Assembly: GCA_973895155.1 (NCBI GenBank)
Contig: OZ316896.1
Coordinates: forward strand, 11,794,830 to 11,858,829
Origin: Marsupella aquatica
Lineage: Eukaryota > Plantae > Marchantiophyta
Direction: 5' to 3'
Length of the DNA stretch: 64,000 nucleotides
The position numbers and the translations under genes are program-made. Shown piece after piece: positions 35,594-58,875 of the stretch (position 1 is its first letter; each line of letters starts with the position of its first letter). The notes below the pieces were generated by a model. The model was not told where the DNA came from. It was given only the letters and a program-made list of their open reading frames with translations, and did no database searches.

Positions 35594-35890
35594 CTCGGGG
35601 GTCTCACTATATGGGGACCTCCCCATCGCCTGCGACGTTTTTAGGGCTCGGACCCCCTAAAATATAAGAATTTATTTTTATTTTTTAACCCCTATAAAGT
35701 TGGAATATTCTTGGAATATTCTAAAAATTGGATTAAAAAGGCCCTAATGTTCTTATAAGTCTCAAAATTGAATTTGAAAGACCCTACTGTTCTTCTACAA
35801 AAATTCTGAAGTCTTCCCTTAGAACCAATAAAATGACCCTATCCTTCGTCGCACGTGATATGCCATTTTCGTGGAAGTGAAACCCCCGAG
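35594..35890. mobile_element. hAT-like MITE (297 bp)
   Basis: 15-bp TIR CTCGGGGGT(C/T)TCACT; 8-bp TSD TTCTCCCT (35586-35593, 35891-35898); absent from copies 1 and 3. Confidence 0.88.
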
Positions 35891-37455
35891 TTCTCCCTAA
35901 GCCGTCCGATGACCTTGTCCTTCTTTCTTCTTTCCAAAGCCACCACTTCTTCCAATCGGCGTTTTTCCAACATCTCCCTCTGGAAAAAGGGTCCCTGCTC
36001 CAACTCCTCCCCAAAGATGCTGAGCGCAAGTTCCCCACACATCTCCCTGTACTCCATGGCTCTTTCTTGCGCATAGATGGAGTGAGTAGTAGTCACTGGT
36101 ATCAACCACCGTAGCCTTTGTTCCCAAGCTGCCTTTCGGATTTCTTCTATCGTGGCTGGAGGTGTGCTTTGTGTTTCTACAAGCCGCCGGATGTCCTCTG
36201 GCCATTCTCCCCCAAGTAAATCCTTCTCTTTGGCCAGGGCTGTCTCCTCTTTTTCCCTGAGCCGCTCCTCAAACTCCTGTGCCGTTTGTTTTATCCCGTC
36301 AAATCTCTGGGGAGTGACATTTGATGGGGGAGACTTGGGGCTGTTTTGCTGTTCTGTCCCCTTGAACTACTCTAGGAAGCATGGGGATGAAACGGCCATA
36401 GGTCCTTACTCCTGGGACATGATGGTCCGACCCGTAGCCGGAGTCATCATTGTCGTAGTCCTCCACCGCCTCTCCTCGGCTTGGACTACTGGCTCCCCCC
36501 ACTGCTCTCCTGGTCTTGCTGTGAACACGGCCTCCTGCCAAACATAGCTCACGGGTCCTAGTTCCTCCTTCGGCTTGCAGGCTATCCTCTCCCTCTATTT
36601 ACCTCGACCAGGAGCTTTAGGCTGCTTTACCTCGGCTTCTGGACTCGAGGCTCCTACATACATTCGAACCCCCGACTCGTGTTCCGGCCTCCTTCTTTCC
36701 TTGGCTCCGGTAAAGGGGTTTTCCCTCCTGAGTCAGCTTAGGCCAACTTTTGGGGCAGTGTCCTGTACCGGTGTCGTTGCCATCGCAGCCCTCTTTTCCT
36801 TCTCCAGCAATTTTAGAAGATTCTGCATGCCTGGTTACTGCATCGGCAAGTCTTCCATCCTTGGCCTAAACACTTGCTCGATTGTAGGACTGCCAGGCTG
36901 GTTTGGTTTCTCTGCTGCCGGCCTCTATTCCGGAACTTCCTCTGGTGCCCTTGCCTGCAGGGGAAGTACTGGGGCAAAGATCTGACTCCGGGCATACCGG
37001 CACAACAGCGGCATGTGATAGCCAAGCCGAGACACACTTTCCTTGCCGATCACCTGCTGTTCCTCCTTCAAGATCTTCTTCAGTTGGGTGAGGAGGTACC
37101 CGTTGTAGTCTCGGCTTGGGTCTGGCCTCTCCGCCAGGTAGACTTGTGCCTTGCCAATCTCTGGCCTCGGCAAGTTGCAATGCATGGTTACCTGCAGGAA
37201 ATCAATTATCTCCCCAATGTGCGGGTTGGTGCAGGTGTTCTGGAAGAAGCCATTCTTTGTTGATGGCCCTGGGAACAATCGGAACTCCTTGTCCGGCAAG
37301 GTCTTCTTGGTATCTACTTTGGTCTTATTGCCCATCGGCAAGCCAAACACTTTGGCAATCACCTGGGGAGTGAGATAGAACTCTTTCCCATAGATCCTTG
37401 TGGAATTTGTCTTGGGCTCCCATGGGTATAACCACCGTGCTAGCAAATAGATATT

Positions 37456-37608
37456 CTCATACGAGCCAATTTTGCCTCATACAAGCAAAATTTTGTCTCG
37501 TACGAGTAAACAAGTTCCTCGTATGACCATATCTATTTACTCGTACGAGTTTCTGTTTTCTTGTATGAGTTTCTGTTTTCTTGTATGAGTATTTTTTTCT
37601 TGTATGCA
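37456..37608. repeat. Subterminal array of the 10-bp palindrome CTCGTACGAG, ~20-bp period
   Basis: Copies at 37456, 37476, 37497, 37518, 37540, 37560, 37580, 37599. Confidence 0.8.
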
Positions 37609-37896
37609 TTTTAGTTTCTTCTCTTCACGGTATGTAGCGTCCATATATGCAATAATTGTGTGGACAATATTATGGTGGGTCCCACCATTGTACAACATTA
37701 GAGGAAATTTCTCGATGATTTCACACAAGGACTCCAATATATTGCCACGAAATATGAAGTCAAAACAAAGTCATACAATACTAGCGCCCGACGCTAGTAT
37801 AGTATTATACAAAAAAACAACACTTTAAGAACTCACACTTCTGCCCGTTAGAAAAGACAAACTACAATTGTAGCTGTTCAACGATCAAGCAACAGT

Positions 37897-40800
37897 CTAC
37901 GTTCTCGTACCCAACTGCCTATCAAGTATGTAACGGACTTCTCCCAACGTTAGAATTGGCTGGCTACATAATGTCGATTCGAGCACATCCAGTTTGAACA
38001 TATTCTTGAACACCCAATACACATGTTTGCAAGGCATGTAAGGCTTCCGATAAGTATGTCGACGGTAGAAATCCTCGCAAGAGCAACATGGGAAACAACA
38101 TATCTTAACCCAATAAGAGGCGACTGATCTCTCATGTTCATGGGTCCAGATACAAAATTGTTTCCCCGACGCATTTCCACTCGTGATCACTCTCTCTCCA
38201 ATGACGCTCATCACTTCTTTTTCAAAGGCTTCAATTCTCTTCAAATGAGTTTGGGTTCCCGTTCCTTGAAGCGCACCTCACAGATGGGTCAGTTAGGTTG
38301 ATCCTCTCCGGGAAAAGATTGACATCAATTCGTAACGCAGAAGGCAACGGTGCTTCAATTTCATCTCCACGGCCTTCGGAGAGAATAAGTCCTTGTTCTT
38401 TCAAAAATTGAATCTCTGCTCCAGAAAGATTGGTCCCTCTAGCAATTGGGAGATGTGAAGGAACATTGGGAATGTTCGAGACTCCTCTCCTTGTTGTGCT
38501 TCGGTGACAGTGGTTGTTGGGGCAAAACCATATCTGATCGTTATAAGGTTGCCCCCTGAACATTCTGCATCCTCTCACAGAAATTGCAACAACACCATCT
38601 GGATTCGGAAGACCAACCTTCTTTACTCGATTTTGACATTCATCACGACTAACTCCCCGTCCAAGGGTTCCGTTACACATTGGACCCGCACCCCGTTTTG
38701 AGGTCCGACGCAACTGCCAGGCACCGGGAGGTACTTCACTTTCCATTGGGGAAACTGAATGACAATATGCAGTCTCGACAGGTCTTGCAGGCGTCACTGG
38801 TGGGACAGAGGATCTCGTTGCTCGACGCGTAGGTGTGTCAATGACCACAACTTCCTCAGAAGCATCGCTTTCTGACAAATTATGGACCGCATCAATTCCA
38901 CCGGCTGAAGGCGTAGAAGGCATTTTCTCGAAACCAGTGGAATGCAGGTTTCTCCTTTTCAAACCTTTTGTATTTGGTGAAGTAACAAGGATGGTATCAT
39001 GCCTGTGCGAGTCTTCTGCCGAGACGTTCCCAGTTGCATGTCCTTTTCGTTTCACCGATCGAGTTACAACATCACCATTCAATGGAACGCTTCTTTCCAA
39101 ATCAAACTCATCAGCGTTCGACAGGAGGAGATTGGTGGCTTCCTCAAAGAGACGCGGTGACCCCGCCAGGTCCGCCGATCTTAAGGCAAGCTCAAAAATA
39201 GTTGGGCCAGTTCCTCTGCTCAATCCCCTTTTGTATGCAGTATAAGCAGCAATTTGAGCAACCGCTCTATTTTGGTCCGTTTTACATCCTTCAAATAGAC
39301 CAACCTTTTTTTTTCTGTTGCCATGCTTTCATTCCAGCATGCCTAGATTCCGAACCAGTACTATTAGGAATCATCCCAGCCTCTTCGGCACTCTTGCTCT
39401 GAAACGTTGCACGCAAGGGTTTAGTACATGTAAGAAATTGCACACAAAAGTGGCAACACAATGGACATAACAGTAGCGCCAGACGCTAATAAACTGATGA
39501 TGATATTTCCATGTAAAGAACCGTTTAACACAGAATAAAGGTAGTCCTTACATCACTCATAGTCCAAATGGATTATTAGCGCTCGGCGCTACTATTGCAG
39601 ATAAGGAACCCTTCTATCTCACACATGCTTCACTAGCACCGAGCGCTATTAATGGGAACATGCATCCTAGAGAAGTGTATAACTCACCAGTCTTATGAAG
39701 TTCCCCCATTGTCTCTATCGGACAACCCACCAAGACAGCCACCCTTGCAGCATCCGAAGTTTGCCTGAGTGACAATTGCCAAACCTCCACCAGTCATCGA
39801 TTTCCCTAGAGATTCGATATGCTTTCAAGAAAGTTGGCGCGTTCCGAAGATGATCCCACATCTCCTTGTGCTCTCCGTGCTTTCCATCTTTTACACCTTC
39901 TCGGGAATGACGATGAAAAGATTGGAAAAAATGAAAGGCATCTGATCTTTCTCGCTCTGGGTCGGGTACACCGTCAAAGAACACGTTTCGAATAGCATTC
40001 CAACCAGCCTGAGCATTGTTCACCATGAATCCCCAAATTGTAACATCCTGTAAACCATTTTCATCGGCAACCTCTAACATCAAACGCCAGGCTCTCTCCA
40101 GAGATTTTGCATCTTCGGCCTTTAGCTCACAAGTGAATATGGTGCAAAGTGCCCGGTAATGATGATCATATACATGGGCACTGAAAGTAAGCCAATCTGC
40201 CGTGCTTCGATGCATCACGTCAAAACTTACCCATGAACCCTCTAACGACCCACCAGGTTTCATTCTTTGGAGCAGGTCCAGACCACTACCGTCACCTTTT
40301 ACGGTCATTTTAAAGATATGAGCACTCTCGTTCCGACAGCCTTGACCAGGGAGCAAGAACCTATGAAGAAAAGGCAGTCGGATACACTTTTGCATCCTCA
40401 CAAGAAATTCCAGTTCCCCTTTCCCCTTCTGATCTTGACGGACACTCCTTAACACGGATGCAAACTTCTGAGGAGATGCGACGACCATCAGGGACTCCCA
40501 GATTTCCTTCTCTTCTTCAAGAGAGATTTCTTCAACAGAGGCCTCGCAAAATGTATTCGTCAGTGTCTCAGTCGCAGAGTTTTTAATCCCTGCTGGGGAT
40601 GCCATCGGGTTTGCAGTGAATCCCTTCTCCAGATGAGACTTTGCAACCTTTTCTGCCTCCCTCGAAAAGACCCGTCAACTGGGATGATTGTGAAATCCCA
40701 TATGAACAGCTAGTAGCGACATGTGGGCCAAAGACTTAACGTCAACTTTTGCAGATGGATACATGTAGAACATTAGAGCAGGGCAGGCCTCAACGCACAT

Positions 40801-41688
40801 CGGAGGTTCGGAGCAATGGTGACAAACAACTCCACCTTCAGAGATCAATTCCCCAACTCAGAATGGGCCCGAAAGTTTTGGGGTTCTTGCCCACATCTCA
40901 TTATTTCAAAACTTGTTGTCTTTCCACCACGGACAAGCATTATTTCGACACTGCAGCGATCCCGTACACTGGACTTTCCCGAAATCCCACATTTTCTTCG
41001 GAAAAACATTTGAAGATGTTTTCACAATCCGAGTCCAATAATAACAATCCTTACCACGATCCATATCTTTCAAACGTTCACCTTTTGCGTTCACACAGTC
41101 TACCGGGGGTAACTCAAAAACCACATTCCCATTGTAAGACGTGGGAAGACTAGGCACTACATGATGAACAAAATCACTCCCCCTTATAAACCAAGACAAT
41201 TCACTATGACCTTTGGATTTCAAGATTGTATCCATTGCACTCTGCCGGTACACAGTCAAAGGCACAATCATTTCTCGATCCGCATTAGACTCCTTTTTAA
41301 CCTCGGATGGGTAAACTGGAATCTTCTCTCCGAGAGTAGTTGTCGCTTGCTTATCATCTCCAGAACTTTCCGAGAGTTCGATGACATCGAGTTCAGCCAC
41401 TGTGGGAGGACGAGTATAGGAGGCCCCAGAATCTCTCAAAACAAAAACCTCATATTCTTTCTGAGCCTCCAGAGTCCAATATCTTAGACCATGAACAACA
41501 TCGTAGAAAACTGGAGTCTCCCCCAAACAAACCGACACTAACGAGATCGCTAAAATAGACTCCTTGGCAACATCAAATCTCACTCCCAAATATTCCTCTG
41601 AAACATGCTTTGATTCAGATGATTTGAGGACGAGAATTGTGATTACATCCAGAGTGTCCTTCCTCGTGACAACGATATTTTGAGCCAT
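37897..41688 (-). pseudogene. MULE DDE transposase with GCM-like N-terminal Zn domain and C-terminal SWIM finger (frameshifted; intron ~39687-39400)
   Basis: DCYYW..CTGSLQCRNNACP; WVSFDVMHR, FMVNNAQAGWNAIRNVF, DAFHF (CxxH position), PNSTGSESRH; SWIM CSCEDF..PCKHVYWV. Confidence 0.8.
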
Positions 41689-42401
41689 GGCTTCAAAAGA
41701 GGGATATGCATTTGCCCCACGCGAAATGAAATATGTTTATCATGAGATTCGAGTACCAGAAGTAAATGTTCCATTCTCATTATAGAGTCGTTATAGATTT
41801 GGACGCACTCCATCAATGACGTTTTGTCGTCTTACCAACGGCAGGATTCAGGTTCATAGTTACTAGCGCCTGGCGCTACCTCTATGTGTAAAACACCCTT
41901 GGGTGAGGACTACGAATGCCAATAATAATAGCGCCTGGCGCTACCTATTTCAATGGACTTGAAAACATTCAATGGAAGGATAAGTACAATAACACGATAC
42001 AGTACGAGTCATTAAGTCCGCACGCTTTAAGATCTCCACTAGATCTTCGCGAATCCGATCTGTCCGGGTCCAAATGTGTCAGAGAGGAAGCGTCCACGAA
42101 AGTTATACCAGAGGGTCCTCTTCAAAGTGGGCAGCCAGGACCAAGTGCGAACTCTCCTTATATCTAGTCGTTCTCCTCCGATGTCCTCATTGTCAAGCCA
42201 TTCTTTACTGAGTCACAGTTGTGGCTCATCTTTCGGGCGCGTGGTTCCCGTTCTCGCATTCGGGCCCAGTTGCTCTTTTTGGCTTTCATGCACGTTCTTG
42301 TTCTCCTTCTCGTCCTCGTTTCTCATTCTCGTCCTAGTTCACGCTGTTGTCCTCCTTCACATTCTTGTTCGCGCTTCTTGTTCTCGTCCTAGTTCACTTT
42401 C

Positions 42402-42825
42402 AATGGCACCTCCACGGGGGAAGGCAAAGGAGGAGGCACTTATCCCGAGTGACACCGACCGGGAGACCCCCGCATCAAATAGCTTACCACCTCGGGACGA
42501 GAGGACGACTGTTCCAATCTCAAAGAAGGAGAAACTCATCTCAAAGACGAAGAATGCCCCAACTATGGGACGCAGCGAAGGATCCAATCGGCCAAATGCG
42601 AGCGGCCCGACTTCTGTTCCCGCTAGGGATATTGCCCATGCTTCAGTCGGCCGTCCAAGAGCCGACACTATCTGCACGGGAGTCTCCGTATCTTCTTCAT
42701 CCACTGAGAGTGATCATTCTTCGAGCGGGGACTCATCACTGAGCAGGCGAGGATTTGCGTGGTATGGATCGAGCGACTCGAATGACGACTCTGATGCGTA
42801 CAAGCCAAGTTGGTGGGAAGACTGA
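42402..42825 (+). CDS. Possible small Ser/Pro-rich ORF between the two MULE genes
   Basis: ATG-started part (MAPPRGKAKEE...) of the 249-aa ORF; low complexity, no recognised domain. Confidence 0.25.
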
Positions 42826-43973
42826 TTTCCCGGTGTCAGAGCGTCTCGTTCGAGTGCTGGAGAGACTTGGAGGATCCATCGAGGTTGATAGGATCTAATT
42901 CCACTCGTTTTTTTCCGTTACAAAACCCATACCGTTCCTTCCTCGTATGCCGGATTTCTAGTGTATTGTAACATTTTGTATATGAACGGCACAGCCGTTT
43001 ATTTTTACCCCGGTGTCAATGCTTTTGAATTCAGAAGACCAAGCTTTAATTTTGGGTTCTACTCCGGTGTTTGCATTGTATTTCTGAATGCGAAACTGAT
43101 CTATTTCTTTGAAATGGCCGTAAACACTCGTTTGCTGTCAATGTTTTTACTAGCGTTCGGCGCTATTATGACAAACAAAGTGTCCGTAACACTGTCGTGA
43201 CATGTCTTATCTCTGAAGTGTTTTTGATAGCGTTGGGCGCTATTAATGAAAGGAATCACAAGTCAGACCCGTTCGGAGTTATTTTTACTTTTATTTCAAC
43301 AAAGTCTATTCAATTGATGTGCATTTTAATAGCGCCAGGCGCTATTGTAATTCATTGGAATATTCGTTGAATGAATGGGTTCATGTGGTCATGTTTGTTG
43401 TCATTGGACTCCGATTTCATCATTTATTTGGATACTAGCGCCGAGCGCTACTAAAGTTGGCTTGTCGACTCCTGCACAAAATTGGAAAATTTATACACAC
43501 TTGTGTTGATAGTACTGTTCGAAGCTACATTAAGACGGTTTTTCAGATACATTTGAAAGTATGTTGTATAATAGCGCCTGGCGCTATCCACAACTACCGA
43601 CATTGATGTGGTTCCAACGGTCACTTTCCAACGGTAATATTATAGTAGATTGAGGTTCACTGAACCCTTTTTGCTTTTGTCTGGGATGAAAGTCCAATCG
43701 GAGAATGCCATCTGTACTTGGGACCGTTGTAATCGAATGGCTGGTTCCAATGTATCGGTGTCTTAATACGAGGTGGAGATCGCTCGTTTGGGATAATTTA
43801 GTCCGTCTACGCGCTCAGACCTCGGACTGTACGAGTTTGTCAAGTGCGTATGTGCGTCCTTTATTGGTCCTGTACATTTTGAGACGTGATCGTGACAAGA
43901 ATTGCACGGCGCGTCTGGCAGTGCCTTTGGTCGAGTCGCTCTCCACGGCAACTTTTGGCTGGGTGATACGAGA

Positions 43974-46900
43974 ATGGGGGAGGCTGATGGTGGTCATTCT
44001 GAGTCCTCTCAGTCTTCGTTCGCTGGTTCAGTATACACCCATCGCGTCACTCGATCGACTGCGTCCCTGTCGACTTCCGAAGCTGAATCTGCACAGCCCT
44101 TCCTGAGGTCGAGGAGAGGGAGAATGGACCCTAAGGACGTCTCCATGGATGAAGTCAGTGACATAGGCTTATCGATAGACGAGGTAATATCAAAGCACGC
44201 ATTGTCGTTCGGGAAGGATTTTTGAGGATTCGATAAGGAGCCACCTCGAATTCCTCTTTGTAGATTGCTCCTCATGGAGGTTGTTCGAACCTTACAGAAA
44301 GAAAGTGCATCGATCGAGAAGTTGAAAGAATCATTCCGTGTCACCGGGTACAACTCGCGCATTGGGATGCCTTTCTACGTTCAGCCTGCGAATGCCGATG
44401 GGGTTTCTCAGATATGCACCGGCAAGATCCAGGACTCTTGGGATCCAATCTGGGTCGCAGAGAACGACAAGTTTGAGGAAGAGTGTGATGTGGACCCAGC
44501 ATTCCATATTCTAAAAGATAAAATGTTTTGTGTGTTTGACGGAAATCATCGATTGTACTCCTGGTCAATCGTCACCAGGGAGAATCTGGACAACTTGAAG
44601 TATCATCCTCGTGTGATTTGCGTCATTTTCAGTGGTGACAGAGGTTCGCTAGTTGAGCTCGAGGCGGCAATGCACACCGTGAACCAGTAAGTTCTATTCG
44701 TTAACTGTTGTTACCCTTGTCATTCATTTTGGACCAAACATGCTTCGCGAAAGTGTTCGTTCCCCAATTTTTGCTAGCGCCCGGCGCTACTAATTCCTTT
44801 TCATTGCATCCAGGCTTGGACAAGCAGTCGTCGAGCCTTCCTGGATTCTTGACGCGGACAGAATTTCCCGAATTGTGTCGCGTGATCTTGATCACTATAA
44901 GCCACTCATCGACAGCGCGAACATGGCAAAGTTTGAGGTGATCCGAAATAAGACAAGAAATGGGTCTTGGTTTACACATAAAATGCCACAGGATGCTCTC
45001 ATCTACATTGTGTGTGGACAAAATCAAGTCTTACTCAAATCAATTTAAGTCTGATATGGCTTTAGCCAAAGCTCAATGGGCTTCTTGGTCAGAAGAGGAG
45101 ACCACAAAGAGGCATGAGGCAATGATGAAGGAGGCGACCAAAGATTGGTCGATCAAAGTGACGAAGATCACCCCTTTACTTCATCCAGATTTTGGAGATT
45201 ATTTGGGAACTTGTGCTGAGATGTATCCCGTAACTGAGAAGAACAAACGGGAGAAGAAGCCAGACACAGTTGTATGCACAATGGATCGAGCCAGGTTGTT
45301 TACTGTTGTTTCATACCTGGATCCAAAATTGAGGTGCACCCTTCTAGTAGCCCACTGCACTCCCGAGATTCGGAAACAGTTTTTCCATCCTGCAAGTGTC
45401 AACGACAAGCCTGTGAAGCAGTGGTGCCATACATGGCATACTTGGAATTCTGTGGAGGGAATTGCAACTGGAATGCTTCACACTTCTTTCAAACAGATTT
45501 CTGACCGAATGCCGGCTGACCGTCTCACAAAGTCTGGGTGTGAGTCAATGGAGGCCATGCTTAAGATCATTCTCGATGAATTTAGAAACTTTGGGGATCT
45601 TGTCAAGGCAAAATTCTTCAACAACTTATGGCCTTCCAAATATGCGGACAAGGAAGATTACACAGAGCGGAACCGGAAGAGAGCCAAACGATATCTATAC
45701 CGGTTTTACATGTGGATGGAGCTTAGATCTCCTGACACTCTGTGGGCATACCCGGCTGCATTTCAGAAATGGGTGTCTATTGAAGAGGGAGACGCTCTTG
45801 CCGACCTTTATTCGATGTACCTCGACACTGTCCGTGGTACCTCGACACAGACAAATGGGATTTACCGTTCGACGAAGCTGAGAAGGATGCCTTCATGAAG
45901 TTGCAGAAGTCCCAGATCCCTGCCAACTATGTGTCTGCAATGAAGCAAGGTCTCCAGTCTGATGTTGACGAATCTGCATCTGAGTTACAGAAGAATTGTG
46001 AGTCTCTTGTCATGCACGTTGACCGAAGCCGTAAGCCAAGAGCAAAGGTGAAGAATGAGTCGGCTGCACCAAGTGACTCCACAAGGTCCTTCAAGAAAAG
46101 TGAGTAGTCTAAGCGCTTTTTGGTTACTTGTTGGCGCTGCTTATGGAGGAGTTTCATTTGGAAATTCCTTTGATTAATAGCGCCTGGTGCTAGTCTGAAA
46201 GGTTGGACTCATTCAAGTTTCTGTGCCTAACAGGAGGTCGAAAGTCCGACACGGAGGTCCCGGCTGCCAAAGGGAAGAATGATGCAACTCCTCAGGCATC
46301 GGAGGCAAACACTGGAGCTCAAGAAACCCCGGATCAAGGGACCCCGGATGGTGCTGGCAAATCCATTGTCCCTCTTGACGCAACTAGCACAAAGAAAAAG
46401 AAAAAGAGAGGCGCCGGTGAGGACAGAGCAACATCATCTACTCGAGACGTTATTTCCTGTGGACTCTAGAGAGATGTCGGGAATTTTAAGCGAAGGTGTT
46501 CTAGACACTGTTTTGTGGAGTCCAATTTAAACAAATTTTACGATTCGGTATTTAACAAGGGGATAAGCCCATGTGGGTTACTAAAGTTGAGGCCTGGGGA
46601 AAGGAATTGGTAAAGTCAGGAGACAGAGAGAAGGGAGTAATGCGTGGCGGAAAAGAGAGGGGCTTTGGTGTGGATGCTGGTTTCATCTACATTCCCACTG
46701 GATTAAAACCAACACTTCTTGATCAGAAGGTTCCCAAGTGGAACCTTCAGGATTACACTATTCCCAGCTCTTTCTTCCGAGCCATGGAGCCGTTCCTTGC
46801 AGACGATGGCCTACTTGCAATTTTACATAGAGGAGACTATGATCAGGTATCTGAAGTGATTGCGGCTTGCCAGGATTCTAAGTGTTTCCAGTGTATTTCA

Positions 46901-47684
46901 ACCCACCATGTGGTCATGACTACACCAATGTATAGGCCCCGATCTGATACTCAGGTAACAATTCCTCTTGCACATACTAGCGCCCGACGCTACTATCAAC
47001 ATTCGTAATATCTACAATTCACTTATCTTTCGTAAGGATGAATGGTTGACTAGCGCCAAGCGCTAATATATGTCTATTTTCTTATACTGCCTTCATTGGG
47101 AAACTGTGTTGCAGATATTCACACTTACTCTTAATATATTTTGCCGCATTTCGACAAAGGGAAGGGTCCCGAAAGACCCCAAGTTCCGGCCACTATCGAA
47201 TGATGAAGACCCTTCCGTCACTAACATTATTGGGTTTTCGTTGCCGCGAGATGACCCGACTCCTGAGCTCCAATTTGCAGGAAATTCATGATTGCCTGTG
47301 GGTTTCATGCAAACTATTTTGGAATTGGTGACTCTTCCTGGAGATATCGTTATGGACTGGACAGTAGGTTCCGGTAGTACGTTTGTGGCTGGAGATTATT
47401 CTGGTCGCTTTGTTGTTGGGCTGGAAAATCGGCCAGAGTTTGTTGATACTTCCGGTAAGGTCTTCCTCGATCTTTTACAGAACAAAGAAGTGGTTGCACC
47501 AACTCCTCCTAAGAAGATTCCTGGAAGTAAGAAGCAGGACAGGCTCCGTGCTATTCTAAATTTTGATTCGGAAGACGAGGATGAGGGTGGAAATGCTTCT
47601 CAGCAATCTAAAGATGATGAGGTGTTGAAGAATGTGGTGGACCTTGGATCTGGAGATGAGGACAGTGAAGAGTCAAAAGAGTAA
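43974..47684 (+). pseudogene. Spliced MULE cargo gene: ParB/Srx-like domain plus beta-class N4C/N6A DNA-methyltransferase-like domain; exons ~43974-44686, 44814-46099, 46234-46954, 47115-47684
   Basis: ParB-like: RIPLCRL..VR..IEKLKESF..GY..FYV..FCVFDGNHRLYSW. MTase-like: VDAGFIYIPTG (motif IV position), FLADDGLLAI (LkpgG-like), LPVGFMQTILELVTLPGDIVMDWTVGSGSTFVAGDYSGRFVVGLE (motifs X/I/II). Canonical GT..AG introns; in-frame TGA at 44223 and 47289 plus frameshifts. Confidence 0.75.
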
Positions 47685-49248
47685 TTTTCTTTAGCTTTCT
47701 TTCTCTCATTGTATACTTTTTTCCAAAAAACTCCTCTACTCCCTTTTGTCTAGAAAATTCGCCCGATTTCCCGACTTCGACTAAAGAACTCCAGTTCAAA
47801 TTCTCAGGTCAGAGTGGAATCTTTGGAGGCGTTTTCAACTTTGAAGGAACGTCTCTAGGAACGTTGTACACACCCCGGAGAAGCCATTTGTTCTCCCCTC
47901 TTATGCTGAAAAGGCGGCACGACGGGCAGATTCAGTCAGGATGCTTACTTGGGAGAGTAAGGGTCTTAGACTCAGGAGAGGCTCAGATAGAAAGTTTGTG
48001 CAGAATCACTTCGTAGATGATATTGCAAAATCCAAGTATGTGGACGACGAAGCAGAGTCCACTGATAGATCAGAAAGTAGCAGTTCTGAATCGGGCTCAG
48101 AGTCGAGTGGTGGTTGTGGATCTGGTCTTTAGTTTTCCTTGTTTTATTTACCCGTTTATGGAGAACGACGACACTCAATAAGAACGCTGTGACGTGTCGG
48201 ATTGGAGTAGCGCCCGACGCTATTACTGTAGCCGGTAGTTCAAAGAGGTTTTTATTTGGTTGTTTTCCTTATAGCGCCCGACGCTAGTATAAATGTACTC
48301 AATGGCCGCTTCACGTCCAATATATGTGACAATATTTTCATACCCTTTGGTGTGTTTTTTGGGTGCACATTTGCTGGTATGATTTTTGCTGTTTGTTGTT
48401 TGTTGTTTACTGTTTGCTATTTGTTGTTTGCTGTCACGGAGAGATCCCCCGGCTCCCATGATCCCACGAATTCTAACAAGTCAGAATCCGGCACCTTCGG
48501 CTTTAGCCAATGTAATTTTACGAAGGCTTCCAAGCCGGATCCGGCCATGAAGCCCTGGTACTTCTGACTCTGCATAGCCATAAAGCATGCATCCTCCTCT
48601 TGTGCAAAGTGTAATTGCACTTCCTCAGGGAAGGTCGCCGCCCAGCCCTTCCAAGTATCATCCCTTGTTGGAAAGGCATTGATGGGGTCGACCTCCTCTT
48701 CTTTGGCTTCTCCCTGTCTCCTGCTTCCTTGCTCGGCTGGCTTCCTTGGTGCCGCTGTCCTGGGAATAGTGAGTTGTCAAGAACACGTCGGGTGTCTGGC
48801 TGCATGTGCTAATTATGCTACTTATCACTTGTAAGAGACCTCATGCTTAGAACCAATTCCCTTGAGAGCACTAGTAGAAACCGGGGCAATTTAGACCATA
48901 CCTTATAGGACTAAGCCCACTAAGTCCTTATTCCATACTTTAAACGACTCGCATCCATTGCCAAGGTTTTGGTAAAGACTATAAAAGACTTTGAATGTGC
49001 ACCCGGTTTAGTTAAAGACTATGAAAAGTATACTTGCTATTTTGTGAAGGGTGAACACTCTATACATCATAGATTTTATTCTTGGAATCCACAATAAAGG
49101 TCCACACAAAGACTAGGACACTTGATAGTCTTACAAGGGTTCATCATAAGAGTGTACTTCAAAAGGACCGGTCGACGTGCTACATTTTGGCCGCAGTGCT
49201 TAAGGAACATGCCTTGTATATATCACCAAGCAGAGGCCAAGGGCCACC

Positions 49249-49590
49249 ATGAAGCGTGATCCTGATGGGTTCTTGTTGGCCAATTTTAGGTCCAGAGTAC
49301 CAGAATGGTCTGAGCCTTTTGTTTTCCCTAGCCAAGTTGAACAGGCTTTCTTTCTAGATGTGGAGGGGTCACATGACTGGAGGGTGGTATGCCATAGCCA
49401 AGCACGGAATAGGCGGATGGATGGAAGTAAAGTAGAGTTCAGTTTGGACGACCATGCTGCATTCAAGCATCCTAGTCAGGAGACCGTAGTTCCAGCTTGG
49501 GCAGGGACCGACTACATCCCGTTAACATTGAGAGAGACATATGATGAACCTGGGGAGATGGAATATGATGAGGTTGATGATGTGCAATAG
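49249..49590 (+). pseudogene. CACTA TnpD C-terminal remnant (DUF4216-like)
   Basis: DPDGFLLANF..EPFVFPSQVEQAFFLD..DWRVV. Confidence 0.75.
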
Positions 49591-49767
49591 GCAACAGCTG
49601 GCAATTGGCAAGTATGAGGTTGAGGATGACTACCTGCACAGAGTCACAAAATGAGAATTGCTGCCTGGAATGATGTTTAGGATAGTTGGATATGCATGAA
49701 ATTGATTGATACTTTGAATCTAGTGTGTTGATTCTCCCTATTTGGTTGTGGGTGCTGTGCAGAAGCT

Positions 49768-52194
49768 ATGGGGGAAGAGGGTGATGACATGGAGATAGAC
49801 ATGGGGCTTGGAGAGTGGGGTGAAGAGGAAAGATTGGATATGGATGGAGATCCAGATGCAGGGCCCTCACAGAAAAATGCATCTGTGTAGGATGCACAGG
49901 GCCCTCATCAAGTGCCAGGTAGGTGGGCAGCTAGAGAGAAATCACATAATCCATACCCTAGAAGGAGCCAGAGTTATTGGCAAGGGACGCCTGATGATTA
50001 TGATGATGACTATGATGGAGCAGAAGATGGATGGGATGAATATGAACACCTAGAGCGTGGTAGAGACGGGTATAGAGGGCAATGGAACGGTGAGGAGGAT
50101 GATTGGACAAGTAAGTGCCTTGTGCTAGTGATTTTGTGATGGTAGTAGAGATTTAGCTCAATATGGACTTATCTGATGTCTAGCTAGGGCAAAGAGTTTA
50201 TCTTACAGGTCCATCAGTGTGGCATGTACCTGTTGGTATGCAGACTCTGATTGGGACAATCACGAAAACAACAAAGGCCATCCACGTTCAGATAGGAGGC
50301 AATCATTCATAGGCGGGAGAAACGACCCTAATTCATCAAGACAAAGCAATTGGACAGGTGGTCCAGAACCATCTATGCGCCAAGGGAGAGGTAACTTGGT
50401 CATTGTAGAATTGCTCTGAAGTCCAGTGTATATTTGGCAGCAAAATTTATGCTTCATACTTACCTAATGGATCCCGTAAATGTGCAGGGACTCCAGGGAG
50501 GTTTGGACAATGCAATCCACGCCGTGGGGGGAGATCAGGCCGTGGAGGGACCCCAGGCCATGGGGGGACATCAGGCCGTGGAGGGACACCTAGTAGCGCT
50601 TCAGGGAGTACCAAGGCAGGAGACAGTAACAAATTTGGTAAAGTAGAAGTGAATTCCGAAGGTTGGATAACTCCCACATGTGATGGTAAGAACCGTTGGC
50701 ATTCTGACCTAAGAGGAGAAGTATTGTGTTGGTTAGATTTGAGCATTACAGAGTTTAGGAGTCAGAACAAAGCTGATTGGGCTGCTATCTGCAAGGACAT
50801 TCTTGAACGGTGGGACTATGTTGGTAATGATGGTAAGGGCCTAGTTGAAGATTGCATATCAGATTATGCAATGAGGATTTTGAAACAAGAGAGGCATAGG
50901 TTGAAAAGGATGTGGATAGACAATGGTTCTAACAGGAGAATGCCACCACCCCCATCATTGGAACTGGATCAATGGACACGGTTAATCAAAGGGTTCATGT
51001 CGGAGGCTGGACAGAGCAAGAGTGAACTGATGTCAAATGCTCGAGGCAAAGTGAAACACCTTTCACAGGCTGGGAGAGGAAGTTATGCTCCAGTGAAAGA
51101 ACAATTGGTAAGGCAGTGACATGCCTGATAGTAAGCCTCAAACTTATCATCTTGCTACCATTATTACATTTTCATTGACAATCAACACTTGGTTTCATTC
51201 ATATGTATGTTGATGTGGACTGCAGAAGAAATTGACAGGTGAAGAACCATCAGCACAAGAAGTGAGAGAGGAGTTCATGAAACAAAGGAGTGAGGTGACA
51301 AGTGTGACTTCCAAACAGGTGATTATGTTGTAATTCTATATGTTCTGTGACTATTTGGCCTTGAGCATCAGAAAGAAATGTAGTAGGAAGTAAGCAACCA
51401 GTTCTTGGGGACAGTTATCTGAGATATGTAAGCTGTGTTATGATAGGGAACTGTTACAACTCTCATAGAGATGTGTGAACGGTTGAAGTCATTAGAGTGT
51501 GGACTCCCTCGAGTGGAAAGTAAATTGGCTGATCGTTTGGATATTGTGGAGGCATCTGTAGCAAACCTTCTTGCATCAGTGGAATCTAATTTCAAGCTTG
51601 TGATTGAAAAATTGGGTGGTTCCCAACCAAACAATGAGGGCAACATTGTACAAAGTGTGCCCTTGTTAACAAAACAGGGAATTGGCAAATCTGACACAGG
51701 TATGGAAATGACACCGGCCCATTGTTCATTGTGTCCTATGTTCAAATGTTAGAAGTAAGTTTTCATGAATTGAGTGAATGGTTTGAATGTAGGAAGAGTG
51801 GAGGCAGAGAAGGACCCTGTAATCAGTAAGCAGAAGGGAAAGAAGGTTGCTGAGACAGGTAACCTGCTATGATCCAGTACATTACATTTGAAAAGTGCAT
51901 GGAGTTTTGTGAAGCTTAAGCCGGTTGGAGATAATCTTTTCTGTAAGAACTGGTTGGATGAACTGGTTGGACTCGCAGGTATGTGTGGGTACAGGCATTT
52001 TGCGACCGGATCATGCTAAATTCCATGGCAAAGTGGTCCCGGATGACCATGTAGTAGTGTTGTTGACTACAGTGATTGTATCTGATTGTAATTTGCCATT
52101 TCCGAATAGAGACGATGATCCACCTCAGGAAATAATTGCAGATGCAGTAGGATCTCTTGTGCTCTGGCCATCAGAGTGTGTTAGTCTGCAGTGA
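49768..52194 (+). pseudogene. Multi-exon CACTA TnpA-like second gene
   Basis: Acidic N-terminal exons; RHRLKR..PPP..QWTRLI..SE.MSNAR..GRGSY (Ptta/En/Spm-like); last exon FHGKVVPDDHVVV..LPFPN..AVGSLVLWP; GT..AG introns. Confidence 0.65.
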
Positions 52195-53884
52195 CTGAAT
52201 GCAAGTGTAGATAGAATCATGTAAATTGTGTCACATTTTGACATTGCCTTGGAAAGATCCAAGAAATATCTGTACCAATTTTTCCATTTGGTAAAGAGGA
52301 TGAAGGAGCCGTTGTGTGTGACATTGATATTTCTGAATTCTGTGTGTATGAAACAAGTGATTGATATCAAACTATGATACTTGAATCTGTTTTGTATCAT
52401 TTCAGTATCAGTGTGTATGGTATAGAGGAATACTTTGTGACCTTCTTTGTAGTCTATAAAGTTTGAATCTGTGAATTCATATTAGTGTACATGGTATAGA
52501 AGATGGCTTTCTGAAACTCTATGTGTTCTAATGTTAACATGATGAATGGTGAGCTTATAGAGTGAGTTCATTCCAAGTACACAATAAAACATGAATGAAA
52601 TATGTTATTTGTGCACAAGAGTGGGTTCATTCCAAGTAGTATAGTGGGGTCTTCATCACTCATATCCAGTTGACATGAAAGACTTATACATACCCCACAA
52701 AGTATATTTAAAGACTACCCTCCATAACCTTTTTAGTCGTTCCCAACGACTCACCATCGTAGCCCATAAAAGACTGAAAACGACTCACCAAAGCTACCCA
52801 CACAAAGACTAAAATAGACTGAAAATCCAGTCTATTAAACGACTTATAAACCACTTCTATAAAGGACTCAGTTGATTATAGTAACAAAATATATGACTCG
52901 CAGTCCTATAAATGACTGGAGTCCTTCCCAGTCGTTTCCAAGTCCTATACGGTACTGAATAGTCGTTTAATGGGGTCTAAATACCCCCCGGTTTCTACTA
53001 GTGGAGCCTTGTCCCCTCCCGGCCATTTCTCAAGTTCCTTGGGTTCCCCTGTGTCTCTTGCGGTTTTCTCCAGATAAGTTGGGTGGGAAGGGCGTACCCT
53101 TTTCCGCAAGGACTCCTAAGCACTTTTGGTACCAAGAGACATGTGTGATCTACTCCAGATATTGACAATAACACCAGAGTAGTCAGGGCCAAGCCCACAC
53201 TCCACAAATCTCTCCTCCAAGTGATAATCTTCTCTACGTGCCTCTATCAACTCTCGGCTATGATCTCTCTTCTATTACACTATTATGAACACACTCACAT
53301 CCCCATCTGTGCATCTATATAGTATTAATGGATCCGACAACGCGATAATCGCAGTGTATCCTTCTTCCCCAAACTTCTATGTCAAAACCTGCCTAATATC
53401 TACCTTCCTCTTTACTATCAACTTAATGCTCACCATAGAACGTAAATTCAAAATCTGAGGACTCTCATTCAAATCGATATTGACATTCATACTTCCTATA
53501 TGCTTTCTAACTAAGAGAGGTTCAGCGACAGAGCCATCCCTACTTGATCACAGGTTCGTGAACATTATATCTATGGTATTGGCGGTATAGCCGACCTTGC
53601 TAGATTCAAAGTTCCATCTTCAAGGTACTCGAGTGGTGGCAATGCCTTCCATGACCAAGAATCAAGAAACTTAGAATCCTTCCACCATAGAAACCGGCAA
53701 CATAGCCATTCCGTTTAGTCCTATAACCGATGCTCAAGCATTCTTCCAATGCAAATGCACTCTATGCACTCTCTATTCTCACGCTCATACGCTGGAAATG
53801 CTGGAAAAATGGACTCCCCTAGGAGGGGGAGCCTCCCTCTTATTTATAGTTGAAGCCAGGCCACGCTGGTCCCTTTACAAGAGT

Positions 53885-54130: not shown

Positions 54131-55036
54131 CTTATAATTTTATTTGGTAAAACCCAAAATCTCCTTTTTACCACAAAAACCTCTACTTTTACATTTTCAC
54201 ACAAAACCAAGCTATTCTCCATATAATTTAATTCCCTTACGACACCGTCGACCTCGTTCTCTTTGCAGGGGTGGCCTCTTCGTTGTTGTTCCTTTCCTCT
54301 TCATAGTGGCTGCCATGGATGTTTCTCCGAGCATGGTTGCCTTCGTCCACACCTTCTTGCTATCCTTCAACTCCCAGTGTATGTTGTTGCAGCGGTTGAT
54401 GGTTTCCTGGATGCCAACAACTCTGTTATCGCAAAATAGAAGGTCGTCAAGCTGATTGGCAATAGGAGTCCACATGAACTCGGCCTTGATAAGCTCTCCT
54501 CCTATGAAGGCAGACTTTTGTAGCTCCCATAGTCGAGCAAGCTCCTGTTGTTCTCGAGCTGCCCTTTCTGATTCTTTGTCCTCGTAGGTCCCAATGTACT
54601 CAGTTTCCCGTTTGAATTGGCATCCCCAAAAATGAGCAGCTTGATTGACGTTGCTCATTCCCTCCTTGAATTGATAGTCGGTATTTGCTCCCGCCCATAG
54701 TGCTTGCCTAAGCAGCTGATAGTAGTTGGCTTCTCGTACTCGTCTGCTTAGTTCGTGCTTCCAAATAAACCACCGTTCCTTGCGATCGGTCCTTACCCCC
54801 TTTGCCTGGTCTTCCTTCCTGTTGATTACCCATAGCCGCCGGTACTTAGCGCTTTAACCCTAATTGTGTTCCTTGCCGTGGCATCCTTACTTCCGGCCTC
54901 AGCTCGAGTTCCATAGTCACCCTTAATTGTTTATAATTTCCTTGTTTTTGTTACTATACTAATGTGTTTTCAGGGTACACTCCTGGTTTTACCATTTTAA
55001 CTGGCCTAGTGATTCCTGGCTAGGCATCACAGGTAC

Positions 55037-57842
55037 TCCTGAGTGAAAAGATGGTACTGTTGAGTAAAAAGATGATACTCTAAAATCTTTAATCAAGAGG
55101 AGGATACTCTTATGTGGAAAGAGGGTACTCTAATGTGGATGAGGGTATTCAAAAGAAGAGGAAAGAAGAGGCAAAGGGTAATCAAAGGAGTAAAGAAAAT
55201 ATAAAAAATATTTTGTCGGTGATCAGCGTGATTGAAGCATGGAATTAAGTAAGAATGAAGACTCAACCTCCCATTGATTGATGAGATACGGTAGTTGGGA
55301 AATTCACTGATTACAAGTAGCGTAATTGAAGTTCCAAGTTGAGTTGAAGGTGGCAATGTCAACATCACAAGTTGTCAAAGTTGAAATCGCGAAAAACTAG
55401 TGGTGGGAAAACTCATCAGCACCAAATATTTTTTGGAGCCAGATTTGCTAGAATTGGCTGATTTTTTTGTGGAGTTAGAAGGAAAATAGACGCATCTTTT
55501 GGCAAAGTATGAGCACCAACTGAGGTCTGGTTGGTGAGAGAAAAATCAAATGCTGGAGGGGGTATGTAATTTTTTATCTTTTGTTGCAAATCTGATTCTA
55601 CACATTTAATCATATGAATGCTGTTATAGTCCATTGATTGGTGAAAAGATAGTGGTTGTCATTAGTTCGGGTTGTGAAGCCCATGAGGAAGAAGGTGGTA
55701 GGTTGGAAGGGAAAGTCAAAATGGAGCTAGGAGTTCCAATGGCAAGTTGCTGAAACTGAAAATCACAGAAATGATGAATAGAAAAAATCAGCGACGGTAA
55801 ATATTTTCCATAGCAACATTTACTTAACCAAATTGATTGAAATTTGGTGTGAAAATAGAAGGGAAGTAGACGCACCTTTTGGCAAAATATTAGCACCAAT
55901 TAAGGTCTGGTTGGTGACATAAAAATCAGATGTTGGGAGGGGGTCTCCTGGTGATTTTTCTACGCAAATTGTTGCGAGTTTGCTTGAAGTTCTTGAAGCA
56001 CGTGGATAGTGTTATGGTGGAGGAAGACTTTTCTTGTGTGAAGGAGACCTTCAAGGTGAATTATGCTGATTGATTGTGAAAGAAGGTGAGCTGCTGTTGA
56101 TCATTGGAGGATGAGAGGGATGGAATTTTTGCAACTGATGTATAGCAGTAGACCAAGGGCAATCATCAATTGGATTGTAGTGGACAATTGATTTGAATGG
56201 AGGTTGATGGCTTGATTAGGAGCTACATTGGAAGAAAAGCACTTGAGCAACCCATTGTGAGGTTTGGATTGGAGTGGATTGGAGTGGCTGACAAGTATTT
56301 AAGGATTGTAGTTTCTTGTGTTGAGGGAAGATGTCTTGTTGCTTAGTGGAAACTTTGCCCACATGGAGTGAAAACTAAGATCAACAAGCATATGATCCCA
56401 AAGTTGGATAGTTGTAGAGAAGTGAGAACAAGGACCCTGGACGTAGGTTCTATTTGTACCAGAAAATTTATGATATTACATAAAGTGTATTTTTCTTGCA
56501 TACTTCTTTGCTATGACTCCAATTTTGTAGTTAGCATGAGAATTGAGCTTTAGAGGGATTGAGTTCCTGGATGATACCTTGTGCTCAAGTCCGTTGATTT
56601 CCTAGATGTTCGATATGCTTTTTGTGGTGTGTTTTGCTATTCATCTTTGGTGTCCCATTGGCTAGAGTTACCCTTGGGGGTGACACTCTAATTTCTAGAA
56701 TCAGCTTTTTATCAACCTGTCCCCCTAACTTGTTGAAATTCCTAAGCTATCCCCCAAATGATTTTATTTACTTCCCTGCCCCCCATTCCGTATACGGAAT
56801 AGTATTTTCTCATCTTTGGGGTTCCGGATGCCAGGTGGCAAGGCGTCATTGGCCCGGATGTTTCTGGCCAAGTACTGCTTCTCCCTGCCCGACTGCTGCT
56901 TGCCCCCTCCCCGCCGCGGCCCGTTTTGATGGAACGGGCTTTGCTTCAGACCCGGGAGGAGGCCAAACGCCCCCCCCCACAAACCTCCGCTCCCTCTAAG
57001 CCTTCGTGAATTCCGGACCTCCGCTCCCCCTAAGACCTCCTGAAGCCCTGACCTCCCATCGCAGCCCGAGTACACAGGAGAACGCAGCATTGAGCCCCGT
57101 TTTTACAAAGGAAAAAAAGTCCAGGCCAATGATGCCTTGCCACCTGGCATCCAGAACCCCAAAATGAGAGAATACTATTCCATATACGGAATGGGGGGCA
57201 GGGAAGTAAATAAAATGGTTTGGGGGACAGCTTACAAATTTCAACAAGTTAGGGGGACAGGTTAATAAAAAGCTGTTTCTAGAATTGGGAGATGATTTTT
57301 GACTAGGGGAGCTGGTAAAGTTTTATGCTTGAGATCGTGTTGTAGTCGGGACCTATGGGCTTAGCCCCTAGTCAACTTTATAAATCAATTGATGGTAAGA
57401 ATAGTAGCATAACAACAACATGAGCTTATGTGATATCTAGCAGAATTTTCTCAATGAGTTGTCAGTTTGTTGTTGGTATGTAAGATCAACTAGAAGTTGT
57501 GTTGTGATTTCACGTTTTCCTTGGTCCGGGCAATATACCTTGGTATCATATTGGCGATTCCTTGTAGTGGCTCGATGTGTAGTTGTGAGCTTTTAGTAGG
57601 GAATTGCTTGTAGGTTTTTCCTAGTCACCCTATTTTAAGCACATTAGTAAAGCTTGCACTCTCACAAAGGAGTCTTTGTGGAGAGTTAGGTCTTGTTGTT
57701 TTGTCGTTGTAGTTTGTGGGTCAAAGTGGAGAATGTTCTCCAGCCTCTTGTAGGATAGAGGTGGAGTTTTGTTGGTTCTAAGTCTAAATATTTTTATCCA
57801 TCTTTCACTTATGGTCTCACCCTAAGCTCTTCCATGGGAACA
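55037..57842 (+). mobile_element. LTR-like non-coding sequence, possibly starting TGTCATG at 33600 and split by copy 2
   Basis: TGTCATG start like the LTR at 7740; internal duplication ~55485-55560 vs ~55865-55945; ends ..GGGAACA followed by TGGTA. No TSD found. Confidence 0.3.
56702..57275. mobile_element. Mutator-like MITE (574 bp) with long TIRs
   Basis: ~155-bp TIRs starting CAGCTTTTTAT; 10-bp TSD TTTCTAGAAT (56692-56701, 57276-57285). Confidence 0.92.
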
Positions 57843-57879: not shown

Positions 57880-58875
57880 GCTACTCGTGAGTTACCCACC
57901 ACGACAGTGGTGGCCCTCCTACCACGTGCCTGTCCAAACTCGTTTCTCAGCCTTGAAACAAGTCGAACCTTGCACTAACACAGAATGTTGGGGCAAGTTC
58001 TCTTCGACTATACTCCTTGTCGTTAGCAACCCCTCCCATACGAAGCCGCATTTGCCCTTGTCAGCACAACCGTCGCTCAACGGTCTTTGCTATCTGCAGA
58101 AGCAACCAACCAACCGGTAAGAACCCGTCTTGATCTCAGAACTTCCAAGACCATTGTCTTGCATCAAGCTCAACAGTCGTTAGTAAGTAGGTCAGCGGAT
58201 AGAGCCTCCCAGGCCCGCATGGCCTTGCCATAAGCTGAAACTAAGGTCGGCATCACTGTTCGTCCGGAATAGTCTATCAACCGGATGTCGCCCAAGCTTC
58301 CCCACTTTCTACCCATCAATGGTTGACCGCCCTGCCTCCAGGACATGCCCATGGCCCAAACTTAGTTTGTCACAAACTAGTAGTAACACGCCGGGACCAT
58401 TCGATTTCTAGATCTTAGCCACCTCTCGGCGAAACCGGGTCTCGCTCAACCTCTCACCATGCATCGGGACCAGATCTCAACGGCAGCCCCCAGAGTCTAC
58501 TTGGTTCTACCTCTCCAACCTCAGGTCCCCGTGGGAACCAAATGCGATTTGGTCACTATTCGACTTCGGATCGATAAGAGGGACTACCCCCATTGCAAGC
58601 CTCAAAACCAAAACCATCCAATTCACAATCAGAGAGCACCATGAGGTATCTTTCTTCATTAGCTTTCCAACGAGCCCAAGAACTCCCCCAATGGAGATCC
58701 GGTCGTCGAGTTATGCTTGTTTCCGCTTCAAAACTCAAAACGACGTATCTTCGTCGATCGCAATCAGCTCGAGCTCAAACTTGAGAGGACCACTACCCTC
58801 ATATATGCTTCTGGGGACCTGCCACCCCCGGACCAGCTTTGGTCCCCTATCTTTGGCTCCCTACCCGAGGGTCCG
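57880..58875 (-). mobile_element. Degenerate LINE ORF2 3' fragment
   Basis: Minus-strand pieces resembling the post-RT region (KYLGV-like, VAW..GGLG-like, Cys/His zf-RVT-like). Heavily decayed. Confidence 0.45.

Follow-up and report, generated by a model that had tools for sequence, protein, structure and literature searches.

Why should a plant transposon carry, and keep under selection, a methylase-like protein whose catalytic motif is gone? The question is raised by a locus in the liverwort Marsupella aquatica, within a 64,000-nucleotide stretch of contig OZ316896.1 (assembly GCA_973895155.1, forward strand, positions 11,794,830 to 11,858,829). This whole stretch is here called the window, and its coordinates are used throughout. 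The original prediction placed in it a Mutator-like element, bounded by a target-site duplication (TSD), with a spliced gene that fuses a ParB-like region to an N4C/N6A DNA-methyltransferase-like domain, and saw in this cargo a horizontally acquired module for modifying or binding DNA. The element is real, and its cargo appears to be a variant of an already proposed class of transposon accessory protein. Building on its sequence and on analogy with known systems, we tentatively favour, at somewhat less than even confidence, a two-gene Mutator-like transposon whose pseudo-methylase would bind 17 palindromes of its own element and, with no methylation of DNA, hold that element in an accessible and transcribed state. 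The palindromes are the strongest clue to what the cargo does.

The limits of the element are drawn by the repeat in which it sits. The alignment of that host repeat to its other copies in the window breaks off at 37,424 and picks up again at 48,451, the two parts overlapping by 10 bases, and the copies near 17,165 and 62,543 represent empty sites. The TSD is 9 bp long, a 10-bp reading also being possible; with 9 bp the element ends become symmetric, agreeing at 9 of 16 bases, and long terminal inverted repeats (TIRs) are absent. Mutator-like elements have TSDs of 8-11 bp, and some of them, VANDAL for example, are without TIRs, such that the missing long TIRs lower the case for a "canonical MuDR" element, not for a "Mutator-like" one. 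The parts of the element outside the cargo gene are as follows.

37,424-48,450: whole element, Mutator-like, 11,027 bp
37,415-37,423: TSD, left copy, 9 bp (from the sequence and the empty site in host-repeat copies)
48,451-48,459: TSD, right copy, 9 bp
37,456-37,620, plus strand: subterminal tandem array of 20-21-bp units at the left end (TRF scores 68-101)
37,897-41,688, minus strand: broken transposase gene of two exons, intron at about 39,399-39,687 (from translations)
42,403-42,825, plus strand: 140-codon, low-complexity, serine-rich open reading frame (ORF) with PSWWED at its end, located between the transposase and cargo genes

Other copies are known as contigs of four sequencing runs. 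All four runs yielded contigs that skip about 11.06 kb and join across the element site, and in all four each of the 30 bins of the element is covered by contigs 80-99% alike. Because several such contigs cover each position, the element belongs to a multi-copy family, although contig depth is not a copy number. A bacterial contaminant was considered and rejected in view of the spliceosomal-type introns, the insertion in a plant repeat and the multi-copy contigs.

The transposase exon 1 contains four stops. By eye, the protein has a GCM-like Cys/His N-terminal region, a C-terminal SWIM-like CxC..CxH finger and a D..(N)..DxxH..E pattern in which the second position of the acidic triad reads N in this copy. 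It was matched by nothing in Pfam (E values up to 10, including the MULE domain PF10551), NCBIfam, PHROG, PDB or plasmid searches, and it is the TSD, together with these transposase motifs, that gives the element the label "Mutator-like". The 140-codon ORF is covered by contigs like the remainder of the element and had no match in Pfam; it is possibly a third gene.

The cargo gene (43,974-47,684, plus strand) stands head-to-head with the transposase gene and comprises four exons, separated by three GT-AG introns in phases 2, 1 and 0. Together these exons form one frame of 1,090 amino acids (aa) across three stops and three frameshifts; the original prediction had already noted such damage.

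43,974-44,686, plus strand: exon 1, disordered start and, after it, the ParB-like region, which contains DGNHR; stop at 44,223
44,814-46,099, plus strand: exon 2, region of about 420 aa of no known family; two frameshifts
46,234-46,954, plus strand: exon 3, linker and, after it, the opening half of the methylase fold; one stop (46,467) and one frameshift (near 46,564)
47,115-47,684, plus strand: exon 4, S-adenosylmethionine (SAM)-binding end (motifs X, I and II), followed by an acidic tail; stop at 47,289

This exon-intron structure is supported, as a prediction, by the ends of homologues and by contigs. A homologue 70% identical (P0001) stops exactly at the end of exon 1, at the same intron position, and annotated Calypogeia proteins continue in register over the junction of exons 3 and 4. 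Forty-four family matches were picked by eye from 111; 37 of them align from exon 4 onward only and seven also include exon 3. Contigs in two of the four runs replace intron 1 while retaining its flanks. Exons, GT-AG introns and empty sites together support the original prediction of a spliced cargo gene in a TSD-bounded element, and the peptides it had quoted are found in place (VDAGFIYIPTG at 46,670-46,702, FLADDGLLAI, and LPVGFMQ...FVVGLE from 47,292 onward).

The copy in the window is dead. Contigs of other copies are free of two of its frameshifts (those near 45,008 and near 46,564) and also lack its stop at 46,467, which arose by C-to-T at a CHG site; the remaining frameshift consists of a 20-nt tandem duplication around 45,818-45,849. 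Since 15 of its 20 coding differences from the contig majority are non-synonymous, the copy is decaying neutrally. Homologues with a species name, from 30 proteins looked up, are liverwort proteins in all four cases (three from Calypogeia fissa, one from Riccia sorocarpa). A weak search for longer homologues produced one exon-1 relative among 236 candidates, and searches of viral and metagenome contigs produced no relative; a phage tblastn match, to gp32 with an E value of 0.2, was rejected.

The original prediction made no mention of the palindromes. The 15-bp pattern TAGCG-N5-CGCTA, chosen after the sequence was seen, occurs 17 times with at most one mismatch vs 0.56 times expected, a count reached by none of 100 shuffles. 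All 17 copies lie within the element and none in the other 53 kb of the window. Coding sequence makes up about 66% of the element, yet every palindrome is non-coding: seven are distributed over all four introns, seven lie between genes and three near the ends.

37,782-37,796: palindrome, left subterminal, one copy
39,474; 39,577; 39,634 (span 39,474-39,648): palindromes in the transposase intron, three copies
41,864; 41,929; 43,151; 43,228; 43,330; 43,436; 43,572 (span 41,864-43,586): palindromes between genes, seven copies
44,775; 46,178; 46,978; 47,051 (span 44,775-47,065): palindromes in the three cargo introns, four copies
48,208; 48,272 (span 48,208-48,286): palindromes, right subterminal, two copies

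The extended consensus reads TA-N-TAGCGCC-N-GGCGCTA-N-TA. Its outer eight bases are invariant, the CpG of each arm is kept in 16 of 17 copies, and every departure from a perfect palindrome (15/15) is C>T or G>A, 13 of them in the inner C/G pairs. Such a pattern would befit a site that a protein binds and that selection maintains while the DNA is methylated. The observed-to-expected CpG ratio is 0.83 for the element (0.79 with the sites masked) and 1.10 between its genes (1.06 masked); eight other transposon stretches in the window have ratios of 0.32-0.67.

Which protein would read these sites is the point at which the first rival explanation enters. The palindromes might instead be binding sites of the transposase, serving in end pairing or self-activation, with the cargo acting otherwise, for example on chromatin or a protein partner. 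The N-terminal Cys/His region of the transposase is, by eye, typical of DNA-binding domains, and a 2026 preprint credits the AtMu1 transposase by itself with the activation of cognate copies (10.64898/2026.08.24.746577, in the portion available). However, the left end carries its separate subterminal tandem array, the usual place for transposase sites and the putative binding region here (the 10-bp core of that array is by itself not enriched window-wide, with nine found vs 4.5 expected), and 14 of the 17 palindromes lie far inside the element. We regard this explanation as unlikely, while granting it more than any of the other rivals.

If the cargo protein is the reader, its nature matters, and its C-terminal part is the best defined. 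Exon 4 matches PF01555 at 33.4 bits (cut-off 26.7; E 5.8e-8; positions 166-219), the sole Pfam match among the cargo exons, and phrog_3008 at E 6.4e-9, and the profile of the cargo family matches M1.HpyAVI and CcrM by sequence. An AlphaFold model was obtained for a Calypogeia homologue (P0017), so that the fold evidence comes from this relative and not from the window's own protein; its predicted local distance difference test (pLDDT) values are mostly 60-93 over the domain. The model matches CcrM with a Foldseek E value of 8.6e-13 and a VIA Z score of 18.1 over 202 residues, followed by MboIIA, BceJIV, rotifer N4CMT and PvuII at Z 16-18, and the top 11 VIA rows are all permuted DNA amino-methylases. 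Alignment and profile confirm the permuted order, with motif IV N-terminal to motifs X-I, as in CcrM, M.MboIIA, M.PvuII, rotifer N4CMT and Marchantia DN4MT1. On this modelled and sequence evidence the C-terminal part is a beta-class amino-methyltransferase fold, as had been proposed.

The two sides of the active centre have fared differently. Motifs X, I and II on the SAM side are present (T.PGD.VLD..xGxG...A....R..IG.E), with the D, G and E conserved. Motif IV, at 46,688-46,699, reads YIPT. In the five homologues that cover it, it reads FLPN, FLPN, CLPN, ALPT and DPPT, never (D/S)PPY, while a column-for-column alignment shows D or S in first place and an aromatic residue in last place in 21 of 21 prokaryotic rows. 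The QKP-type motif ahead of motif I is also replaced in the plant family. We rejected the possibility that YIPT is a lesion of this copy, as sister copies share it: it occurs in the dominant contigs of all four runs, the contig across the motif differing from the window at 0-2 positions in each, and contig variants inside the motif are synonymous or change I to L, YLPT being found in a sister group. Exon 3 is under purifying selection, because 21 of the 30 variants listed are synonymous and nine non-synonymous (23-30% synonymous expected; omega about 0.13-0.19; binomial p <1e-5); the variants were pooled from contigs, each with a share of more than 15%, and do not stand for independent lineages. 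The comparison of copies that the original prediction had suggested has kept YIPT and supplied a low omega, and what it offered as a caveat, a catalytically altered or dead domain, appears to describe the family and not damage to one copy.

Comparison with active enzymes points the same way. CcrM, M.MboIIA, M.PvuII, rotifer N4CMT and Marchantia DN4MT1, which are active host or bacterial enzymes according to the passages on them, carry DPPY or SPPY, unlike the cargo; DN4MT1 is described in the available part of a preprint as having TSPPY and no extra domains, and it is by this description that we liken it. In rotifer N4CMT, changing SPPY to APPA abolishes activity, as stated in the sections available (PMC8885841). 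Since motif IV is lost family-wide while exon 3 remains under purifying selection, the family is best read as a conserved pseudo-methylase, presumably catalytically dead.

An active, if unusual, methyltransferase that writes N4-methylcytosine (4mC) or N6-methyladenine (6mA) on its own element, or methylates RNA or protein, has in its favour the complete fold, the SAM-side motifs that were kept and the purifying selection, together with a Riccia homologue that retains DPP; activity of this kind has also been proposed in print for Ectocarpus and red algae (PMC12477816; bioRxiv 2025.02.11.637652, as far as the passages available extend). However, the family consensus of motif IV has neither the polar first nor the aromatic fourth residue, all five homologues lack the latter, and the QKP-type motif is replaced too. 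We consider such activity rather improbable, and the DNA-modifying enzyme of the original prediction is not supported, given a motif IV that is non-catalytic both in the dominant contigs and in the homologues.

The history of the domain was approached with a tree of 26 rows (five plant and 21 prokaryotic), whose root is not known. The five plant rows form one long-branched group (support 100/99), within which the Riccia DPPT protein branches outside the four fully degenerate rows (100/99), an arrangement that fits a stepwise loss of motif IV. With DPPT, this protein (P0053, R1sor_010341 of Riccia sorocarpa) bridges the DPPY of bacteria and the fully degenerate state and, judged by its motif, is the best candidate in the family for residual activity. 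As a separate observation, the prokaryotic proteins P0038, P0041, P0049 and P0033 have two or three tandem PF01555 domains, some of which mix SPPY with DLPY. No particular prokaryotic sister of the plant group appeared among the 21 rows; the horizontal origin claimed by the original prediction is likely to have been ancient and indirect. Phage ParB-methylase fusions (P0083, loci L002-L035) share the domain order, and their profile matches the SAM-binding end of the cargo at E 5e-8, whereas they are about 430 aa long with an intact motif IV and no introns. Direct descent from them was rejected, their ParB profile having no match to exon 1 and the fusions not being sister in the tree.

The remainder of the cargo protein is less well defined. 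Exon 1 contains IPLCRL..VR and VFDGNHRL, with DGNHR at residue 189 of the read-through product, and by eye fits the ParB pattern apart from some 45 residues inserted ahead of VFDGNHRL, a string common to the window and P0001 that places an arginine motif after a hydrophobic strand. ParB is characterised by a GxxR-type nucleotide-binding motif, the position of which corresponds to that of DGNHR. ESM features of exon 1 score 0.95 to a cluster with 11% PF02195 (ParB_N) members, 0.93 to a DUF3723 cluster (31%) and 0.91 to a DUF6551 cluster, and the exon matches the ParB-like phrog_1033 at E 0.016; a PDB sequence search returned galectin-8 noise only. The region is probably ParB-like, a resemblance of sequence that is unproven. 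Exon 2, the candidate DNA-binding part, shows a weak match to Calypogeia P0045 at its N-terminus, a score that 7 of 1000 shuffles reached, and the exon 3 linker carries KKKKKR, which resembles by eye a nuclear localization signal.

Under the reading that we favour, the cargo protein would act in the nucleus as a dimer on the two-fold symmetric palindromes; beta-class methylases work as dimers, according to the passages available (PMC10406627). The ParB-like N-terminal region, the central region or both would grip DNA, and the dead methylase domain might serve as a dimerisation, SAM-binding or base-reading module. Protein so bound could keep the bidirectional promoter and the introns accessible, and the outcome would be a sequence-specific anti-silencing, protecting the element in the way that VANC protects VANDAL.

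Several results weigh against this reading. Cargo exons 2 and 3 have CpG ratios of 0.64 and 0.56, as poor as the neighbouring transposons; the element has been methylated, since the stop at 46,467 arose at a CHG site and all 15 palindrome departures are C>T or G>A; and the CpG excess may stem from youth of the element or from a promoter. The transposase could be the palindrome binder. Among the contigs listed, none spans both genes, and two weak searches of longer proteins (0/934 and 0/6,832) turned up no homologue that is fused and full-length. For exon 1, ParB was matched neither by Pfam nor by a home-built profile of 29 phage ParB domains, 73 of 100 shuffles scored as high in hhalign, and an AlphaFold model made from two sequences had a pLDDT of 36 and did not support a ParB fold. 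The ParB signature of the original prediction accordingly stands as a motif pattern, without support from these four methods. Exon 2, a candidate for the palindrome-reading part, had no match in Pfam or the ESM Atlas.

In a third explanation, the cargo is a ParB-type clamp that loads at the parS-like palindromes, compacts or bridges the 11-kb element to aid excision and insertion, and has no role in silencing. The DGNHR position, the lead to ParB from ESM and PHROG, and palindromes spread along the whole of an element that has no long terminal repeats all suit it. Yet the ParB fold is unconfirmed, with the 45-residue insertion falling within the putative domain, no helix-turn-helix was detected in the cargo (Pfam, ESM Atlas), and the CpG pattern is left unexplained; we hold this explanation doubtful, on a par with the active enzyme. 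Finally, passive capture as in Pack-MULEs, in which the cargo would do nothing for the element, agrees with the neutral decay of this copy but is largely refuted, and very improbable, given the purifying selection among copies, the intron position shared by 44 related clusters less than 50% identical and the element's own motif inside the cargo introns.

An anti-silencing pseudo-methylase remains our preferred reading, and it has precedents in part. The closest is Sola1-1_Ec32 of the brown alga Ectocarpus, whose ParB-like and N4C/N6A-methylase protein of 1,104 aa was put forward as a possible new accessory class, with green and red algal cases cited, in the portion of the paper available (PMC12477816). 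As is predicted for the cargo, both domains occur in one protein, of similar size and on the other strand from the transposase. The published proposal has that protein bind its element and modify it, and the likeness to the cargo is one of architecture, size and orientation. Sola1-1_Ec32 is, however, a Sola-1 element with a 4-bp TSD and a 282-bp TIR, unlike the land-plant Mutator-like element described here, and the passages on it mention neither a dead catalytic motif nor dispersed palindromes. In the red alga Bostrychia, the sections of a preprint available describe PAG2 (PF01555 with SET) and PAG3 (ParB-like with 2-oxoglutarate oxygenase), the latter next to inverted-repeat arrays, and place both in Plavaka (EnSpm) elements of red algae and in Mutator elements of Chondrus (bioRxiv 2025.02.11.637652). 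PAG2 and PAG3 share with the cargo the PF01555 and ParB-like accessory domains, the ParB likeness being weak there also (HHpred E 0.29), but they are separate genes with tandem arrays, whereas here one fused gene has its sites dispersed through introns. Given these algal genes, the novelty claimed by the original prediction was overstated.

VANDAL and VANC of Arabidopsis offer the functional parallel: a Mutator-like element, an accessory protein, and short motifs in introns and upstream (PMC5735166). In the passages available, the VANC motifs are 8-9 bp long, non-palindromic and tandemly amplified, unlike those here, and no ParB or methylase domain is described for VANC; anti-silencing is proven for VANC and would, for the cargo, follow by analogy. 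Additionally, Iyer et al. describe eukaryotic amino-methylases with odd motif IV variants, including inactive ones in DIRS1 elements, and the passages available contain no land-plant transposon clade (PMC4738411). Our literature search, outside of which some relevant works and supplements fall, found neither a land-plant case nor a dead motif IV in print.

The surroundings of the element are repeat-rich, with Pfam matches to Gypsy, Copia and long interspersed nuclear element (LINE) fragments. A high-copy repeat of about 4.3 kb, with long minus-strand, coiled-coil ORFs of 694 and 407 aa, is represented by four copies 78-87% alike, one of which hosts the 11,027-bp element, and the first of which is flanked by Gypsy reverse transcriptase and integrase fragments.

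13,618-17,900: repeat copy of about 4.3 kb
33,612-37,424 plus 48,451-48,761: repeat copy
54,245-55,032: repeat copy
58,863-63,054: repeat copy

Two elements with CACTAGTAGAAA ends occupy 48,869-53,003 and 3,349-6,125, the former with weak DUF4216 and Transposase_24 matches (CACTA-like) and a strongly depleted CpG ratio of 0.32. The sole apparent host gene seen in the window is a short spliced, host-like gene at 27,342-28,000 (plus strand; CpG ratio 0.95), which resembles SPIRAL1 and had no match in Pfam. A foldback element at 56,686-57,291 has arms of about 166 bp, 92% complementary, and resembles a miniature inverted-repeat transposable element; a 27-bp perfect inverted repeat with copies 300 bp apart lies within a LINE-like stretch at 32,288-32,641. 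An Rfam search gave no matches, and a sigma-70 scan, which is irrelevant to plant DNA, gave nothing above shuffles.

VANDAL/VANC has been described, in the portion of the preprint available, as the sole transposon system known to bind and modify its own sequence (bioRxiv 2025.02.11.637652), and algal genome papers, in the passages at hand, put forward accessory genes with ParB and methylase parts as a second class but did not test the proposal. The Marsupella element would extend that class to land plants, all four species-named homologues being from liverworts. Its methylase has been kept by selection though the catalytic motif is gone, and this questions the assumption that such proteins write 4mC or 6mA. 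The palindrome supplies a precise candidate target site for the accessory protein and makes the proposal directly testable. A bolder version of the mechanism, which we hold improbable, would have a ParB/parS-like nucleotide-gated clamp load at the 17 palindromes and spread over 11 kb, the dead methylase dimerising, perhaps with an active 4mC enzyme of the host in liverwort sperm, such that host silencing marks are excluded or rewritten. If true, transposons would have, besides VANC, a second and independent anti-silencing machine, assembled from bacterial parts.

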